Shown one piece after another: positions 3,301-56,560 of a stretch of DNA of 64,000 nucleotides. This DNA is from Escherichia coli (GTDB taxonomy: Bacteria > Pseudomonadota > Gammaproteobacteria > Enterobacterales > Enterobacteriaceae). How positions within the stretch are numbered: position 1 is the stretch's first letter; each line of letters begins with the position of its first letter. The notes under the pieces were generated by a model that saw only the letters and a list, made by a program, of their open reading frames with translations, was not told where the DNA came from and made no database searches. The DNA lies in assembly GCF_044647545.1 (NCBI RefSeq), contig NZ_CP172818.1. The stretch is one strand, 5' to 3'. Position numbers and translations under genes: made by a program.

Positions 3301-4470
3301 ATGCTGGAGTTGTTGTTTCTGCTTTTGCCTGTAGCCGCTGCCTATGGCTGGTATATGGGCCGCAGAAGTGCGCAACAAAACAAGCAAGATGAAGCCAACC
3401 GCTTGTCGCGTGATTACGTAGCGGGGGTTAACTTCCTGCTTAGTAATCAACAGGATAAAGCGGTAGACCTGTTTCTCGATATGCTTAAAGAGGATACAGG
3501 TACCGTTGAAGCCCACCTTACGCTCGGAAACCTGTTCCGTTCGCGTGGCGAAGTTGATCGCGCTATTCGCATCCATCAGACCCTAATGGAAAGCGCCTCG
3601 CTGACCTATGAACAGCGGCTTTTGGCGATTCAACAACTGGGGCGTGATTACATGGCTGCCGGGTTATACGACCGCGCGGAAGACATGTTCAATCAGCTGA
3701 CAGATGAAACTGACTTCCGCATTGGCGCGCTGCAACAGTTGCTACAAATCTACCAGGCTACCAGCGAGTGGCAGAAAGCAATTGATGTTGCCGAACGCCT
3801 GGTGAAGCTGGGTAAAGATAAACAGCGCGTCGAAATTGCCCATTTCTACTGTGAGTTAGCTCTGCAGCATATGGCCAGCGACGATCTCGATCGTGCCATG
3901 ACTTTGCTAAAAAAAGGTGCGGCGGCAGATAAAAACAGCGCCCGCGTATCCATCATGATGGGACGCGTGTTTATGGCGAAAGGAGAATACGCCAAAGCCG
4001 TCGAAAGTTTGCAACGTGTCATATCCCAGGACAGAGAACTGGTCAGCGAAACGCTGGAAATGCTGCAAACCTGCTACCAGCAGTTGGGTAAAACTGCCGA
4101 ATGGGCAGAGTTCCTGCAGCGCGCGGTGGAAGAGAACACCGGTGCCGATGCTGAACTGATGCTTGCGGACATCATCGAAGCGCGCGACGGTAGTGAGGCC
4201 GCACAGGTCTATATTACGCGCCAGCTTCAGCGTCATCCGACCATGCGTGTGTTCCATAAGTTAATGGATTACCACTTAAATGAAGCAGAAGAAGGGCGTG
4301 CCAAAGAGAGTCTGATGGTGCTGCGTGACATGGTTGGCGAGAAGGTGCGTAGTAAGCCTCGTTATCGCTGCCAGAAATGTGGTTTTACCGCATACACTCT
4401 CTACTGGCATTGTCCGTCTTGTCGGGCCTGGTCAACCATTAAACCGATTCGCGGTCTTGATGGCCTGTAA
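3301..4470 (+). CDS. lapB: LPS assembly protein LapB (YciM), TPR repeats plus C-terminal rubredoxin-like Cys4 motif
   Basis: 389-aa ORF; N-terminal TM segment, TPR-like repeats, C-terminal CQKCGF...CPSCRAW zinc-finger. Confidence 0.95.
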   Translation: MLELLFLLLPVAAAYGWYMGRRSAQQNKQDEANRLSRDYVAGVNFLLSNQQDKAVDLFLDMLKEDTGTVEAHLTLGNLFRSRGEVDRAIRIHQTLMESASLTYEQRLLAIQQLGRDYMAAGLYDRAEDMFNQLTDETDFRIGALQQLLQIYQATSEWQKAIDVAERLVKLGKDKQRVEIAHFYCELALQHMASDDLDRAMTLLKKGAAADKNSARVSIMMGRVFMAKGEYAKAVESLQRVISQDRELVSETLEMLQTCYQQLGKTAEWAEFLQRAVEENTGADAELMLADIIEARDGSEAAQVYITRQLQRHPTMRVFHKLMDYHLNEAEEGRAKESLMVLRDMVGEKVRSKPRYRCQKCGFTAYTLYWHCPSCRAWSTIKPIRGLDGL

Positions 4471-6337: not shown

Positions 6338-7087
6338 TTAAATGTCAACGACGTGAACGGTGAGTTTACTGTGCTCAAGATGCATCAGATCGCTGGCGCG
6401 TATTTTCGAATCGGTAATCACGCGATTGAATCGCTCAACGGGGCCGATGGAGTATGAATGTACAGCACCAAATTTCGAGCTGTCAGTCAGGACTATCGCC
6501 TCGCACTCTTTTTCCAGCACGGCATTGACCACATCGGTACGCATCATATCGCGACCGGTAAACCCAGTTTCAGGTTGCCAGCCATCAATACCAATAAATG
6601 CTTTGCTGAAATGCACCTGTTGGATGCACTGGCGTGTCAATGGACCAACCATACTTTCGCTTTTTTTCTGGTACACGCCACCGAGCAAAATAACTTCACA
6701 AGGCGCGTCTTTCAGCAAATGCGCGATGTAGCTGCTGACCGTGATGATCGTGACATTTTTCTTCTGCTCGCCCAGAGTCCGGGCGAGCAGGGCATTGCTG
6801 CTGCCATTTTCGATAAAGATGGTTTCGCCCGGTTGAACCAGTGACGCGGCAAACTCGGCGAGTTCACGCTTCAGCGTATAGTTGCTCATCATACGAGTTT
6901 CGACGTCATCACTATCAAGCGATACTGCAAAGCCATGTGCACGGCGGAGGTAACTCAGTTTTTCGAGGGTGTTGAGATCCTGGCGAATGGTAACTTCAGA
7001 AACTCCAGTGGCTTTTGCCAGATCGGTTACGCTAACCTGACCCTGGTCAATGACCATCTGTAGAATAGTTTGTTGTCGGGAATTCAT
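6338..7087 (-). CDS. yciT: DeoR-family transcriptional regulator YciT
   Basis: 249-aa ORF; N-terminal HTH ([21 protein letters not shown]) and DeoR C-terminal sugar-binding-like domain. Confidence 0.92.
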
Positions 7088-7176
7088 CGCTGTAATTCTT
7101 ATAACGTTATAATACTAAATAAAAAAATACTGACGCGCCGGGCATCCTCAAATAGGAAAACCTGAAGGCACGATTG

Positions 7177-7350
7177 TTAAATCTCCCACGGTGCCTTCGG
7201 GATGTCTGGCGTAGATTCAGCAACCTGGCGCAAGAGTTCTGCTTTAAGTATCTCGAGATTATGGACCGCAGAGTGGTAATCGCCTGCCACAAGGATATCT
7301 AACACAATATCAATACGTTCGGCAACGCGCTGGGCATCAAATTCAGACAT
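7177..7350 (-). CDS. yciZ: Small protein YciZ (UPF0509), function unknown
   Basis: ORF 7177..7392; internal Met start gives 57 aa [18 protein letters not shown]... Confidence 0.8.
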
Positions 7351-7496
7351 CAAGGACATCCTTATAGCAAAAGTGGAAAAGGAATAATGCAAAAATTGCC
7401 GCTAAAAGAGAAGTGTTTAACAGCAACGGCTAATTATCATCCAGTAATACGATATATAATGACGGAATATATCGCTAAGTATATATATTCATCTAC

Positions 7497-12978: not shown

Positions 12979-13767
12979 TTATTTCAGTTCGAGTTCGTTC
13001 ATTGCAGCGATGCTGAAACCGCCGTCAACGTGGACCACTTCACCGGAGATACCGGCAGAGAGATCGGAGCACAGGAATGCCGCGGAGTTACCCACATCTT
13101 CAATAGTAACGGTACGGCGAATCGGGGTAACGGCTTCGCAATGAGCCAGCATTTTGCGGAAGTCTTTGATACCGGAAGCCGCCAGAGTACGGATCGGACC
13201 CGCAGAGATGGCGTTAACACGCACACCTTCCGGACCCATCGCGTTCGCCATATAGCGCACGTTCGCTTCCAGAGACGCTTTTGCCAGACCCATAACGTTG
13301 TAGTTCGGGATAGCGCGCTCAGCGCCAAGGTAGGAAAGGGTCAGCAGGGCAGAACCCGGATTCAGCATGGAGCGGCAAGCTTTTGCCATTGCAACGAAGC
13401 TGTAGGAGCTGATGTCGTGGGCAATTTTGAAGCCTTCACGGGTAACGGCGTTAACATAGTCACCATCCAGCTGATCGCCAGGTGCAAAACCAATAGAGTG
13501 TACGAAACCATCAAATTTCGGCCAAACTTTCCCCAGTTCAGCGAACATGGTGTCGATGCTGGCATCTTCGGCAACATCGCACTGCAGAACGATGTCAGAA
13601 CCCAATTGAGCGGCAAATTCTTCTACGCGGCCTTTCAGTTTGTCGTTCTGGTAGGTGAATGCCAGTTCAGCTCCTTCGCGGTGCATCGCCTGAGCGATAC
13701 CGTAGGCGATGGACAGTTTGCTGGCAACACCGGTTACCAGAATGCGCTTACCGGAAAGAAAACCCAT
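12979..13767 (-). CDS. fabI: Enoyl-ACP reductase (NADH) FabI
   Basis: 262-aa [32 protein letters not shown]...; SDR fold. Confidence 0.97.
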
Positions 13768-13932
13768 AGCTTTAATCCTTATTGTTGATGCTTGTTGTGC
13801 CTGAAAATCAGGCGATTCGTCGTTTTAGTAAACAGTACGAACAGATAAACGGTTATTATAATCAACCTGGCTGTGGGTGGCTATAGTTGCCAGGTCCGAC
13901 CGGAGCAGGCTGCGGCAGGGGGGGCGCTTTTC

Positions 13933-13971
13933 CCCTCACCCTAACCCTCTCCCCAGAGGGGCGAGGGGACC
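13933..13971. repeat. GC-rich palindromic repeat, copy L (TCACCCTAACCCTCTCCCCAGAGGGGCGAGGGG)
   Basis: Internal hairpin CCCTCT-CCCC-AGAGGG nested in CCCCTC...GAGGGG; an inverted, diverged copy lies at 14121..14150. Confidence 0.7.
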
Positions 13972-14047
13972 GTATTGTGCAAATATTGTTACCCCAGCAA
14001 CAAACAGGCTCATACAGCCCCTAACCCTTTCATGGCGATGGCTGGGA

Positions 14048-14086
14048 CGGTTCAGACCTTGCCGAATATTCTCCAGCACCGTCTCC
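14048..14086 (-). repeat. Degenerate duplicate of the last ~13 codons of ycjD
   Basis: 35/39 identical to 14154..14192 (the ycjD 3' end); the last 23 nt are exact. Confidence 0.75.
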
Positions 14087-14120
14087 ATGTTTTCACCACA
14101 ACAGCTATTCGGCTCGGTCT

Positions 14121-14150
14121 GCCCCCTCGCTCTTTCAGGGAGAGGGTGAC
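14121..14150. repeat. GC-rich palindromic repeat, copy R (inverted relative to copy L), overlapping the ycjD stop codon
   Basis: Reverse complement GTCACCCTCTCCCTGAAAGAGCGAGGGGGC shares the TCACCCT..CTCCC..AGAG..GCGAGGGG pattern with copy L; encodes the terminal SPSP-stop of YcjD. Confidence 0.7.
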
Positions 14151-14488
14151 CGGCGGTTCAGTTCCTGCAGAATATTCTCCAGCACCGTCTCCTCATTACA
14201 ATCAATCTCGTTATTCCAGAAACGCAGCACGGTCCAGCCCTGCGACTCAAGCCAGCTAGTGCGCCTGGAATCATAGGCAACTGCTAAATCATGCTGCCCA
14301 CCATCCAGCTCAACGACTACACGCGCCGAGCAGCAAGCAAAATCGAGAATGTAGCTCCCCACTGGATGTTGACGGCGAAATTTGAAATCACTAAAACGTC
14401 GGCTGCGAAGATATCGCCAGAGCTTTCGTTCCTGCAAAGTGAGATTGCGTCTTAAATCACGCGCATTTGATTTAATTTTATCTATCAC
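14135..14488 (-). CDS. ycjD: DUF559 protein YcjD (restriction-endonuclease-like fold), function unknown
   Basis: 117-aa ORF MIDKIKSNARDLRRNLTLQERKLWRYLR... Confidence 0.9.
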   Translation of the reverse strand: MIDKIKSNARDLRRNLTLQERKLWRYLRSRRFSDFKFRRQHPVGSYILDFACCSARVVVELDGGQHDLAVAYDSRRTSWLESQGWTVLRFWNNEIDCNEETVLENILQELNRRSPSP

Positions 14489-14555
14489 CTCATTCTGACA
14501 AGATTTAATCTTTTGTCAGAATGAGGTGAATAATCTGGAAGGAGGATTCAGAAGA

Positions 14556-15362
14556 TTAACGGTCCTTACGCCACGCATCCGCCGTCAATGCCTCGCCAAA
14601 ATGACCGGCGATCAGCCGTTTGGTGAGTTCATGCAGCGGCGATGCCAGCACATCCGCGGTGCTGCCTCGCTCGACAACCTCGCCCTGATGCATCACCAGC
14701 ACCTGGTCGCTAATGTGCTTCATCATTCCGATATGCTGGGTAACATAAATATACGAAATGCCCTGTTTTTCCTGTAACTCCAGCATCAGGTTAATCAACT
14801 GCGAACGCATCGACATATCCAGTGAGGCGAGGGCTTCATCGGCAATAATGACTTTTGGGCGCAATATCAGCGCGCGCGCCAGACCCAGACGCTGTTTTTG
14901 CCCGGGTGCCAACATATGCGGATAGTAACTGACGTGATCCGGTAGCAGCCCAACCATACGCATCGTTTCAATAATCTGTTTGCGACGCTGTTCCGGTTCC
15001 AGATCGGTGTTCAGACGCAGTGGAAAATCCAGAATTTGCGAGATACGTTGACGGGGATTCAACGAGGTCGAAGGATCCTGAAAAATCATGCGAATACGCT
15101 GACTGCGGAAGGAATAATCGCCAAAATGCAGCGGATGATCGTCAATCAATAACTCGCCGCTGGTAGGTTCTATCATTCCCGCCAGCATTTTTGCCAGCGT
15201 GGATTTACCCGAACCATTCTCGCCAATAATCGCCAGTGTCTGGCCTTCACGTAGCGTAAAGCTCAAGGGTTTTACCGCTTCTACGGTCTGACGACGAAAC
15301 CAGCCGGTCCGGTAGCGGAACGTTTTACTTAAATTACGCACTTCAAGTAGCGTTTCGATCAT
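14556..15362 (-). CDS. sapF: ABC transporter ATP-binding protein SapF
   Basis: 268-aa ORF with Walker A GENGSGKST and ABC signature LAPGQKQR. Confidence 0.95.
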   Translation of the reverse strand: MIETLLEVRNLSKTFRYRTGWFRRQTVEAVKPLSFTLREGQTLAIIGENGSGKSTLAKMLAGMIEPTSGELLIDDHPLHFGDYSFRSQRIRMIFQDPSTSLNPRQRISQILDFPLRLNTDLEPEQRRKQIIETMRMVGLLPDHVSYYPHMLAPGQKQRLGLARALILRPKVIIADEALASLDMSMRSQLINLMLELQEKQGISYIYVTQHIGMMKHISDQVLVMHQGEVVERGSTADVLASPLHELTKRLIAGHFGEALTADAWRKDR

Positions 15363-19838: not shown

Positions 19839-20086
19839 AATATTAATGGATTTTATGTAAAGAGGCTATCTTACTAATATTTAATGACATTTGCCATTAC
19901 CGTTTGTGTTCAGGGGTCGTAATGAGGGCCGTGTGGTTGGTCGTTGAACAGGTGGCGTCGCCATCTGTTCAACATTCGTACCCGTGATTTCTCTATAACT
20001 ATAACTCACAGAACAACTTAGCGAGGAGCAGAGCGGTACGATCGTGAGAAACCCATTGAGGCACACTGCAGTGCGTGTCATTGTTA

Positions 20087-20117
20087 GCCGGATGCGGCGT
20101 GAACGCTTTATCCGGAC
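20087..20117. repeat. REP (repetitive extragenic palindrome) element
   Basis: GCCGGATGCGGCGTGAACGCTTTATCCGGAC matches the enterobacterial REP consensus. Confidence 0.8.
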
Positions 20118-20150
20118 AACGATACTGACCCATCGTCTGCAATGAAATAA

Positions 20151-20396
20151 TTACTCATTACCCCATTGATTCAAAAACTCTGCGATCTCATCAATGCGTA
20201 CGGGATTAATCCCCGCTTCAGCAGCCATTTCATGTTGGGCTTCTTCACTGATCTCTTCATTGTTCATCAAACGGGTGAGCAGTAACTGGAAGTAGTGGGC
20301 CAGCGGTGTGCGTTCAGCGTCTGCGACAGGCTCTGCGCATTCGGTCGCGTACTCATCGGCAATATCAAAATATTTTAGCGGGATATCGTGGTTCAT
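20151..20396 (-). CDS. ymjA: Small acidic protein YmjA (DUF2543), function unknown
   Basis: 81-aa [26 protein letters not shown]... Confidence 0.85.
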
Positions 20397-20529
20397 TATT
20401 TGCCCCTGGGGTTAATGCGCTAAGCATAAGGGCGGATGATAGCACTCGTGATCCGGGTCATACATCTTTTTATAGTTAATGGCGCGGTGCATTACCCTCA
20501 GCCAGGATAATGCGCCGCGCATCCGACTA

Positions 20530-56014: not shown

Positions 56015-56253
56015 TGTTTTATCAGGCTCCTCCAGATAATTGTCGTCATGCCGGAAACCCCTGGCGGGACTATTTTACCGCGACAATTCATTCAGATCAT
56101 CAATAGTCAGGGAAGGAAGTAGCAACTCTAACTAATCAATACGTTGATTGTAAATCCAGCTAAGAGGTGAGGTTTTCAGAGCAGACAACGGTGAAATGTC
56201 ATGGTATTGTTACGTTTAGGTAACAAGAAATTTGTCTGCACAAGGATTACATC

Positions 56254-56511
56254 ATGATTATGGCGAAACTGAAGTCAGCGAAAGGGAAGAAATTTCTCTT
56301 TGGTTTGTTGGCGGTTTTCATTATTGCGGCGTCGGTTGTGACTCGCGCGACCATCGGCGGCGTTATAGAACAGTACAATATTCCGCTGTCTGAGTGGACG
56401 ACATCAATGTATGTGATTCAGTCATCGATGATTTTTGTTTATAGCCTGGTCTTTACTGTGTTGCTGGCAATACCGTTGGGAATTTATTTTCTTGGCGGCG
56501 AAGAGCAGTAA
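56254..56511 (+). CDS. ynaJ: Small membrane protein YnaJ (DUF2534), function unknown
   Basis: 85-aa ORF with two predicted TM helices. Confidence 0.85.
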   Translation: MIMAKLKSAKGKKFLFGLLAVFIIAASVVTRATIGGVIEQYNIPLSEWTTSMYVIQSSMIFVYSLVFTVLLAIPLGIYFLGGEEQ

Positions 56512-56520
56512 GTAAAAAAT

Positions 56521-56540
56521 AGGCCCGATAACTCGGGCCT
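56521..56540. terminator. Hairpin between convergent ynaJ and uspE
   Basis: AGGCCCG-ATAACT-CGGGCCT; on the minus strand it is followed by ATTTTTTACT, consistent with uspE termination. Confidence 0.6.
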
Positions 56541-56560
56541 TGTCAGTTATTGAAGAGTCG

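Follow-up and report, generated by a model that had tools for sequence, protein, structure and literature searches.

BoxC repeats at the 3' end of ycjD in Escherichia coli and their association with YcjD-type DUF559 genes across bacteria

The gene ycjD lies between fabI and sapF in a 64-kb stretch of Escherichia coli K-12-like DNA, referred to below as the window, and codes for a protein of the DUF559 family. Its 3' end is attached to a decaying cluster of three BoxC repeats, which belong to an ordinary high-copy family also known as PIT and TMECO. The repeat is found to have a strong and position-specific tie to the clade of nucleases that includes YcjD. The tie holds across phyla, and gene and repeats make up a compact bounded unit found at varying chromosomal sites. 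The evidence leans slightly towards a selfish module of nuclease and repeat, which would comprise the cluster, the travelling units and a nuclease acting on BoxC, with break repair spreading both gene and repeat. The bracketing of the gene by repeats suggests where BoxC repeats come from. The association appears to be new, whereas the repeat and the eef/ycjD polymorphism of this region were already known; no paper linking DUF559 or ycjD to BoxC was found in the open-access literature.

BoxC repeats in the fabI-ycjD spacer

The left copy of the GC-rich motif beside ycjD, BoxC-3, is identical at 13932-13967 to TMECO no. 9 of strain MG1655 (Table 1 of Holder et al., PMC4666352). On the minus strand its G-rich form reads CCCTCGCCCC-TCT-GGGGAGAGGG-TTA-GGGTGAGGGG, in agreement with the BoxC consensus CCCTCNCCC-N3-6-GGGNGAGGG-N3-GGGNGAGGG. 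The right copy, BoxC-1, agrees with this consensus in strain E1 and is one block short in K-12, while the middle copy, BoxC-2, is degenerate. The motif is multi-copy: a 61-nt query with the left copy at its centre matches 5,425 of 5,426 complete E. coli genomes, with a median of 16 places per genome and 19 places in MG1655. A strict perfect-palindrome pattern for BoxC had zero matches in the window because the pattern was too strict.

An earlier note on the window had described two mutually inverted copies of the motif. Their inversion is borne out (arms at 13944-13968 and 14123-14147, 80% complementary over 25 nt), their number is not, BoxC-2 being a third copy. In the reading direction of ycjD, the gene is followed by BoxC-1 (forward, F), a 25-codon relic of a second DUF559 gene, BoxC-2 (F, degenerate) and BoxC-3 (inverted, R). 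The same note was right that the right copy encodes the end of ycjD: BoxC-1 provides the last four codons (SPSP) and the TGA stop (14135-14137). Repeats of this type were described as "always intergenic" (Holder et al., PMC4666352). BoxC-1 breaks this rule by its overlap with ycjD, an exception that is no ground for its exclusion from the family.

The early descriptions of BoxC and PIT are reportedly those of Bergler in 1992, Bachellier and Hoyne. The discovery of BoxC goes back to the 1990s, and that of PIT to a description from Maher's group in 2000 (both cited in Holder et al. NAR 2015, PMC4666352). The name TMECO refers to an "intrastrand triplex motif" that forms a stable triplex in vitro; TMECO loci display an excess of rearrangement, and no mobility gene or function was found near the repeats (Holder et al., PMC4666352). 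BoxC was also rediscovered in a G-quadruplex preprint, as a G-quadruplex-hairpin switch. Note that most K-12 type-A copies, including the one at 13945-13967, carry a single identical stem mismatch (G.A on one strand, T.C on the other; Holder Table 1), a curious feature beside a nuclease with a mismatch-nickase fold.

The duplicated ycjD tail and its alleles

The 39-nt duplicate of the ycjD 3' end claimed in the earlier note is confirmed. The two copies of this direct repeat (D1, Table 1) are identical at 35 of 39 positions and their last 23 nt match exactly (14064-14086 and 14170-14192). The minus-strand relic frame is equally present (13936-14088, starting METVLENIRQGLNR). The direct repeat is far above chance, is kept in thousands of genomes and is homologous at the protein level too. 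Among the K-12 BoxC regions tested, positions 94-111 of the DUF559 profile are matched at the relic only. Homology of the relic extends upstream of its ATG as far as 14121 (QTEPNSCCGENMETVLENIRQGLNR versus FWNNEIDCNEETVLENILQELNRR; also NSCCGENMETVLENIRQGLNR versus NEIDCNEETVLENILQELNRR), and both DUF559 3' ends, that of ycjD and that of the relic, run into their own BoxC, from which they take their final codons and stop. What has been duplicated is therefore "DUF559 tail + BoxC", repeated at an interval of about 106 bp.

This duplicate is not invariant. In an alignment of five ycjD-type strains, E1 carries 12 extra nt in the right copy (TCACCCTCACCCCAACCCTCTCCCTGAAAGGGCGAGGGGG), which restore a full three-block BoxC and give a YcjD that ends in SPSPQPSP*. 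K-12 BoxC-1 is a 12-nt (one-block) deletion derivative of the full repeat. E1 also has 13 extra nt 3' of the duplicated tail (CACTCTCACCCCAGCCATCGCCCTGAAAGGGTTAGGGGG) that expose BoxC-2 and whose counterpart, part of the first block, is missing from K-12; the E1-type relic frame terminates as ..NHHSLSPQPSP* within its own BoxC. Some strains have lost 106 bp between the two tails, so that YcjD is fused to the relic (proteins P0004, P0012 and P0022; DNA of locus L094). These natural deletion alleles appear to arise by recombination between the D1 copies. A 12-nt insertion at the ycjD 3' end was reported in sequence types (ST) ST69 and ST182 (PMC12817139). It corresponds to one block of BoxC-1, as in strain E1; the published description of the locus mentions neither BoxC, nor the relic tail, nor the nature of the 12 nt.

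The whole ycjD region alternates with another segment. Strains 536 and O157:H7 have an operon of about 7.9 kb (TetR, RND, outer membrane protein and MFS genes) in place of positions 13891 to about 14555, the left breakpoint lying at 13890/13891. Operon eefRABCD and ycjD are published alternative alleles between fabI and sapF, with a phylogroup distribution (PMC12817139). The ycjD-type segment is found in 3327 of 5426 E. coli genomes, and eef takes its place in about 38% of E. coli genomes. DNA similar to ycjD is single-copy and occurs in 3,377 of 5,426 genomes, at no more than three places per genome, all of them local; in K-12 the ycjD tail has two places, one in the gene itself and one in the adjacent relic, and neither the tail nor the segment between the inverted motifs is found elsewhere in E. 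coli.

The earlier note had interpreted the segment 13933-14150 as a discrete element, similar to a miniature inverted-repeat transposable element (MITE), or as a single mobile or recombinogenic unit with its own inverted repeats that had exchanged gene 3' ends. Inverted arms do enclose a duplicated gene tail, which speaks for this proposal. The arms are nevertheless independent members of a many-copy family (the 19 MG1655 places found with the 61-nt query), the third BoxC copy spoils the two-arm picture and the outer flanks of the two arms share no direct repeat that would represent a target-site duplication. The MITE interpretation is rejected because the interior of 13933-14150 is unique to this locus, the unit being repeated nowhere else, and the probability left to a single unit with its own ends is very small.

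The YcjD protein

The assignment of YcjD to DUF559 (Pfam PF04480) stands, with an E-value of 1.5e-49 over residues 4-111; the last six residues of the protein lie outside the domain. YcjD also matches the NCBIfam model PRK09767 with 267.8 bits (cutoff 218). Its sole strong match in the PDB is 3HRL (E 1e-37), an uncharacterised protein of Neisseria gonorrhoeae. The structure model of YcjD has a pLDDT (predicted local distance difference test) of 89.6, and its next Foldseek match after 3HRL is 3R3P, the catalytic domain of homing endonuclease I-Bth0305I (E 5e-5, template modelling scores 0.68/0.81). I-Bth0305I is reached marginally by sequence profile (E 0.02), and E. coli Vsr (1VSR) ranks below it in the Foldseek search (E 0.24). 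I-Bth0305I is the prototype of the EDxHD (Vsr-like) homing endonucleases, for which catalytic residues have been proposed (PMC3239194). Residues E20, D49, E60/D62 and D73 are invariant in the alignment of the family and H66 is kept in at least 90% of sequences. Together they probably form an EDxHD-type active site, an assignment made by position from the invariant columns and the residues named in that paper.

None of the PADLOC models of anti-phage defence matches YcjD at E ≤ 0.01. A search of 1.84 billion proteins retrieved 25,064 clusters (50% identity) at E ≤ 1e-3. Carriage by plasmids is rare (39 records, among them replicons of chromosome size and plasmids of cyanobacteria or Deinococcus), as is carriage by phages (2 records). 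A weak tblastn match to a DUF559 protein inside yagF of the CP4-6 prophage (locus L101, 2617-2856; 33% over 82 residues) is probably spurious, the database being tiny and the composition statistics off.

Association of BoxC with DUF559 genes in other genera and phyla

The possible link of the repeat to the DUF559 gene, offered in the earlier note as a guess, turned out stronger than supposed. In Kluyvera, Enterobacter, Lelliottia, Klebsiella, Phytobacter and Franconibacter, nearly all homologues of YcjD (55-67% identity) have the terminal sequence PSPRPSP*, the tail of about 75 of the 120 closest homologues, and those that read through continue ..WKGEGE, which is translated BoxC. The enterobacterial gene end, CCC TCA CCC CGG CCC TCT CCC TGA AAGGGAGAGGG, is a type-B copy in forward orientation; a type-A copy in inverted orientation lies 30-110 nt beyond it. 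This gene-F-R arrangement is common to E. coli, Kluyvera and Enterobacter, and a BoxC copy upstream of the gene is absent in Enterobacteriaceae. The chromosomal sites differ: fabI-sapF in E. coli, between an ABC-transporter gene and yfeX in Kluyvera, and after hemW in Enterobacter.

The association was then quantified in 80 loci with 44-65% identity to YcjD, drawn from one-genome-per-species contigs with two internal peptide patterns. They cover Enterobacteriaceae, Xanthomonadaceae, Gallionella/Nitrosomonadales, alpha- and deltaproteobacteria, Melainabacteria, Elusimicrobia, Chloroflexi, Pirellula and cyanobacteria. To count as BoxC-like, a hairpin had to have a 9-nt arm matching CCCTCTCCC at seven or more positions, a loop 3-10 nt long and no more than one mismatch in the stem. 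Such a hairpin is found at the end of the open reading frame (ORF) in 64 of the 80 loci; most of these hairpins are forward and begin at +3 to +8 nt relative to where the protein match ends. In 49 loci a hairpin lies within 260 nt upstream, mostly inverted and at -35 to -125. Both sides are occupied in 41 loci, at least one side in 72 and neither in eight, at least two of which (L022, L093) have variant motifs. The background rate in the same loci is 0.13 hairpins per kb. The earlier note had named a lack of preference for DUF559 gene ends as a refuting result; the preference exists across bacteria.

Elements in unrelated contexts share nucleotide homology from the outer edge of the upstream hairpin to just past the downstream one, which delimits a unit of about 410-470 bp. 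In the typical unit, the first hairpin sits immediately before the ORF and the second covers the final codons of the ORF together with the stop. The hairpins have the form CCCTCACCC-N3-CCCTCTCCC-loop-GGGAGAGGG, with the third block facing the gene. A strict P-x-P...G-E-G tail pattern is present in 32 of the first 75 diverse cluster representatives from the 1.84 billion proteins, and more seem by eye to have such tails. Three further cases were read by eye: in Deinococcus proteolyticus F and R triple-block copies flank the gene on both sides, in Picosynechococcus PCC 7002 (plasmid pAQ6) a short C5/G5 variant does so, and N. gonorrhoeae, the species of 3HRL, has a degenerate upstream copy.

The hairpins could instead be cis-acting signals for expression of the DUF559 gene that travel with it, a stabiliser or terminator at its 3' side and an operator or attenuator, possibly an autoregulatory site, at its 5' side, the dispersed BoxC copies being unrelated by-products. 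The stop codon in the hairpin loop and the upstream copy 0-100 nt before the ORF would suit this role. So would the fold of the ycjD 3' region as RNA, which is better than that of shuffled sequences (z = -2.8), though the inverted repeat by itself accounts for such a fold. An Rfam scan of 13700-14600 gave chance-level matches only and no Rfam family, a promoter and terminator scan detected no signal specific to the BoxC/relic element, and PIT elements were found to be without promoter or terminator activity (Maher's earlier work as summarised by Holder et al., PMC4666352). Signals of this kind do not predict tens of gene-less copies of the same variant per genome either, and this explanation is accordingly considered improbable.

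Several of the loci have other repeats beside their DUF559 gene. In pAQ6 (L112, 200-400 and 740-900) the gene is flanked by a CCCCC-loop-GGGGG-N3-GGGGG variant and by a second hairpin family (GCCCCTAAATCCCCG..GGGGAC). Tandem BoxC-like arrays occur at L086 (4345-4985), L060 (3652-3948 and 4698-4942), L037 (2716-3621) and L023 (4351-4741), with periods of 103, 69, 45, 294 and about 74 bp. In Legionella shakespearei (L077, ~4340-4440) a long palindrome of another kind comes after the gene; it begins GTAGCCCGG and resembles GTAG-tagged REP rather than BoxC.

Dispersed BoxC copies and the proposed spread of gene and repeat

In 52 of 64 cases, a gene-less BoxC copy elsewhere in a locus has the loop length of the copies linked to the gene in that genome, where 17.9 would be expected. 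Of the five inverted BoxC pairs of K-12, four are composites of about 100 bp with a conserved 27-nt spacer, and their type-B half (..TTA CCC TCA CCC CGG CCC TCT CCC TGA AAGGG) is the gene-terminal copy of the enterobacterial DUF559 genes, TGA loop included. An origin of these composites from a gene-containing unit by internal deletion would fit their sequence. Genomes of E. coli with ycjD have 10-25 BoxC places and those without it 1-4 or 9-18, as counted with a chimeric query and confounded by phylogroup; the low-count ycjD-negative genomes probably belong to phylogroup B2.

In the selfish module that we favour, the nuclease would recognise the structure or the sequence of BoxC and nick or cut there. 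Repair and recombination at the breaks would copy gene and repeats to new sites, in a homing- or transposition-like manner, and the gene-less singles and pairs would be non-autonomous derivatives left by the same process. Local duplications, slippage deletions and segment replacements would be further products, exemplified at the ycjD locus by the relic tail, the losses of 12 and 13 nt from repeat blocks and the alleles that lack 106 bp. A more ambitious proposition has slightly less than even chances. It casts DUF559 proteins of the YcjD type as the enzyme so far missing beside BoxC/PIT/TMECO, in a second, RAYT-independent partnership of nuclease and repeat in many phyla, in which a minimal Vsr-like nuclease would recognise the triple-block hairpin or triplex, perhaps through its conserved mismatch, and would drive the spread and turnover of its own gene and of the gene-less repeats.

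Several observations weigh against a selfish module. The link between YcjD and BoxC is drawn from sequences and a predicted fold. Only one of the 23 BoxC copies of K-12 adjoins ycjD, and tblastn and hidden Markov model searches of 12 other K-12 BoxC regions found no DUF559 remnant. For the E. coli singles, an origin as traces of DUF559 genes that have decayed is rejected, these 12 regions being free of remnants. Gene-less doublets occur in both topologies, and internal deletion of R-gene-F is therefore not their general origin. BoxC persists without ycjD, with up to 18 query matches and 12 in O157:H7. Clean insertions with an empty site or a target duplication were not found at hemW, adk-hemH or ygfF-gcvP. 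The hemW site of K-12 has REP elements instead of the unit; at adk-hemH (L103 versus L110) presence or absence of BoxC coincides with a swap of the entire intergenic sequence (158 nt in one strain, 55 nt in the other); and at ygfF-gcvP (L098 versus L109) it coincides with presence or absence of ygfF, again a segment replacement. The rarity of the gene on plasmids and phages points in the same direction. The 80 loci, moreover, are the best tblastn matches to a query ending in SPSP, a small ranking bias that does not account for the upstream copies.

Segment replacements of this kind, and the alternation of the ycjD segment itself with eef, would be expected if BoxC were a passive hot-spot: unstable non-B DNA (hairpin or intrastrand triplex) would provoke breaks and illegitimate recombination, and small horizontally moving genes such as those for DUF559 would gather there and have their ends rebuilt from the repeats, with no recognition by an enzyme. 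The stable triplex formed in vitro and the excess rearrangement at TMECO loci (Holder et al., PMC4666352) agree with it. Such gathering does not explain that the motif starts at a fixed distance from the end of the DUF559 domain in distant phyla, that the bracketing has a defined orientation and element homology stops exactly at the hairpins, or that other genes in the same loci are without the motif (the background rate given above). A passive role of the repeat is unlikely, though less so than the other alternatives to a selfish module considered here.

Another explanation has the YcjD family as structure-specific nucleases beneficial to the host that act on the hairpins or triplexes of BoxC (stalled forks being one possible setting) and co-evolve with them without any spreading. 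The ycjD ORF is intact and conserved in 3376 of 3377 ycjD-positive E. coli genomes, the Vsr-like fold is that of a repair nickase and "A mm" hairpins have a conserved mismatch, all of which would agree with such a function. A role of benefit to the host is hard to reconcile with sites that differ by genus, a patchy distribution and the replacement by eef in part of the species; ycjD-less strains keep BoxC without obvious cost, and 50% identity across phyla with homology of unit size is a pattern typical of selfish elements. This possibility is rated as low as that of expression signals.

Comparison with known systems

In REP/REPIN-RAYT systems, interspersed palindromes flank a single-copy gene for a domesticated transposase. 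The YcjD units have a similar organization, as a lone nuclease gene is bracketed by inverted copies of the dispersed palindrome of its own genome (on both sides in 41 of the 80 loci), gene-less singles and inverted doublets occur, and gene-linked and dispersed copies share the same variant. The differences lie in the protein, which has a Vsr-like PD-(D/E)XK fold where RAYT is a HUH Y1 transposase, and in the repeat: BoxC has three blocks and no GTAG tag, and its motif is nearly the same across phyla, whereas REP is clade-specific.

Homing endonucleases of the EDxHD type offer the closest functionally characterised fold, with the same proposed catalytic residues, and some of their members are free-standing selfish genes. 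Unlike I-Bth0305I, YcjD has no NUMOD/helix-turn-helix DNA-binding region and lies outside introns and inteins; no clean pair of empty and occupied alleles, as homing would leave, was found at the loci compared. MITEs resemble BoxC in being short, non-coding, dispersed and inverted-repeat-bearing, and the ~100-bp K-12 pairs look like internal-deletion derivatives. They differ by the target-site duplication and the transposase of known family that BoxC lacks, and the ycjD segment 13933-14150 is single-copy. With BoxC/PIT/TMECO as published, the repeats described here share the sequence family, the division into A and B types, the pairing of A with B in inverted orientation and the instability of the locus. 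What differs from these reports is that one copy gives the stop codon of ycjD, that two degenerate copies had formerly been missed and that the tie to DUF559 crosses phyla.

None of the several independent descriptions of BoxC has, to our knowledge, accounted for where it comes from, how it spreads or what it does. DUF559 is a very large family of unknown function. A specific association of gene and repeat would give each of these two orphans a testable partner, suggest a cause for the reported instability of BoxC loci and add a second class of nuclease to relationships of the REP-RAYT type. For annotation, it explains the odd carboxyl terminus of YcjD, the 12-nt difference of ST69 and ST182 and the "long" YcjD variants of 147-148 residues.

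Layout of the fabI-sapF region

The features of the region are listed in Table 1. The fabI-ycjD spacer is 367 bp long, as stated in the earlier note, which had also taken it for the longest non-coding stretch of the window. A crude ORF scan leaves larger gaps, namely 19839-20529, 56015-56560 and 7088-7496, which have no ORF of 90 or more codons and may contain small genes or RNAs.

Table 1. Coordinates of genes and repeats between fabI and sapF in the window.
Feature	Position	Strand	Remarks
fabI	12979-13767	minus	
Variable ycjD-type segment	13891-14555 (right end approximate)		Between the fabI promoter region and the sapF stop
BoxC-3	13932-13968	minus	Full triple-block repeat, type A (TTA as second loop); inverted (R) relative to ycjD
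BoxC-2	14018-14046	minus	Degenerate forward copy directly after the relic tail; from strain alignment
DUF559 relic	14047-14121	minus	25 codons (QTEPNSCCGENMETVLENIRQGLNR); 5' side truncated by BoxC-1
Direct repeat D1, proximal copy	14048-14086		Partner at 14154-14192
BoxC-1	14122-14149	minus	Forward (F) copy overlapping the ycjD end
ycjD	14135-14488	minus	117-residue DUF559 protein, Vsr-like PD-(D/E)XK nuclease fold; tail residues 112-117 encoded by BoxC
Direct repeat D1, intra-ycjD copy	14154-14192		Codons for ETVLENILQELNR
Perfect hairpin	14486-14528		CACCTCATTCTGACA-13 nt-TGTCAGAATGAGGTG; 15-bp stem, just after sapF; not BoxC
sapF	14556-15362	minus	

The hairpin at 14486-14528 is probably the terminator of sapF. 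The GTG start of ycjD sits in one of its arms, and identical arms with another loop are present in the eef-type strain 536 (L004, ~6530-6570). Codon 2 of ycjD is ATA in K-12 and ATG in other strains. In strain a7 a copy of IS421 lies directly beside the left BoxC (L006, ~1446-1512; ~13921 in the window), and the fabI-proximal part of the spacer is lost.

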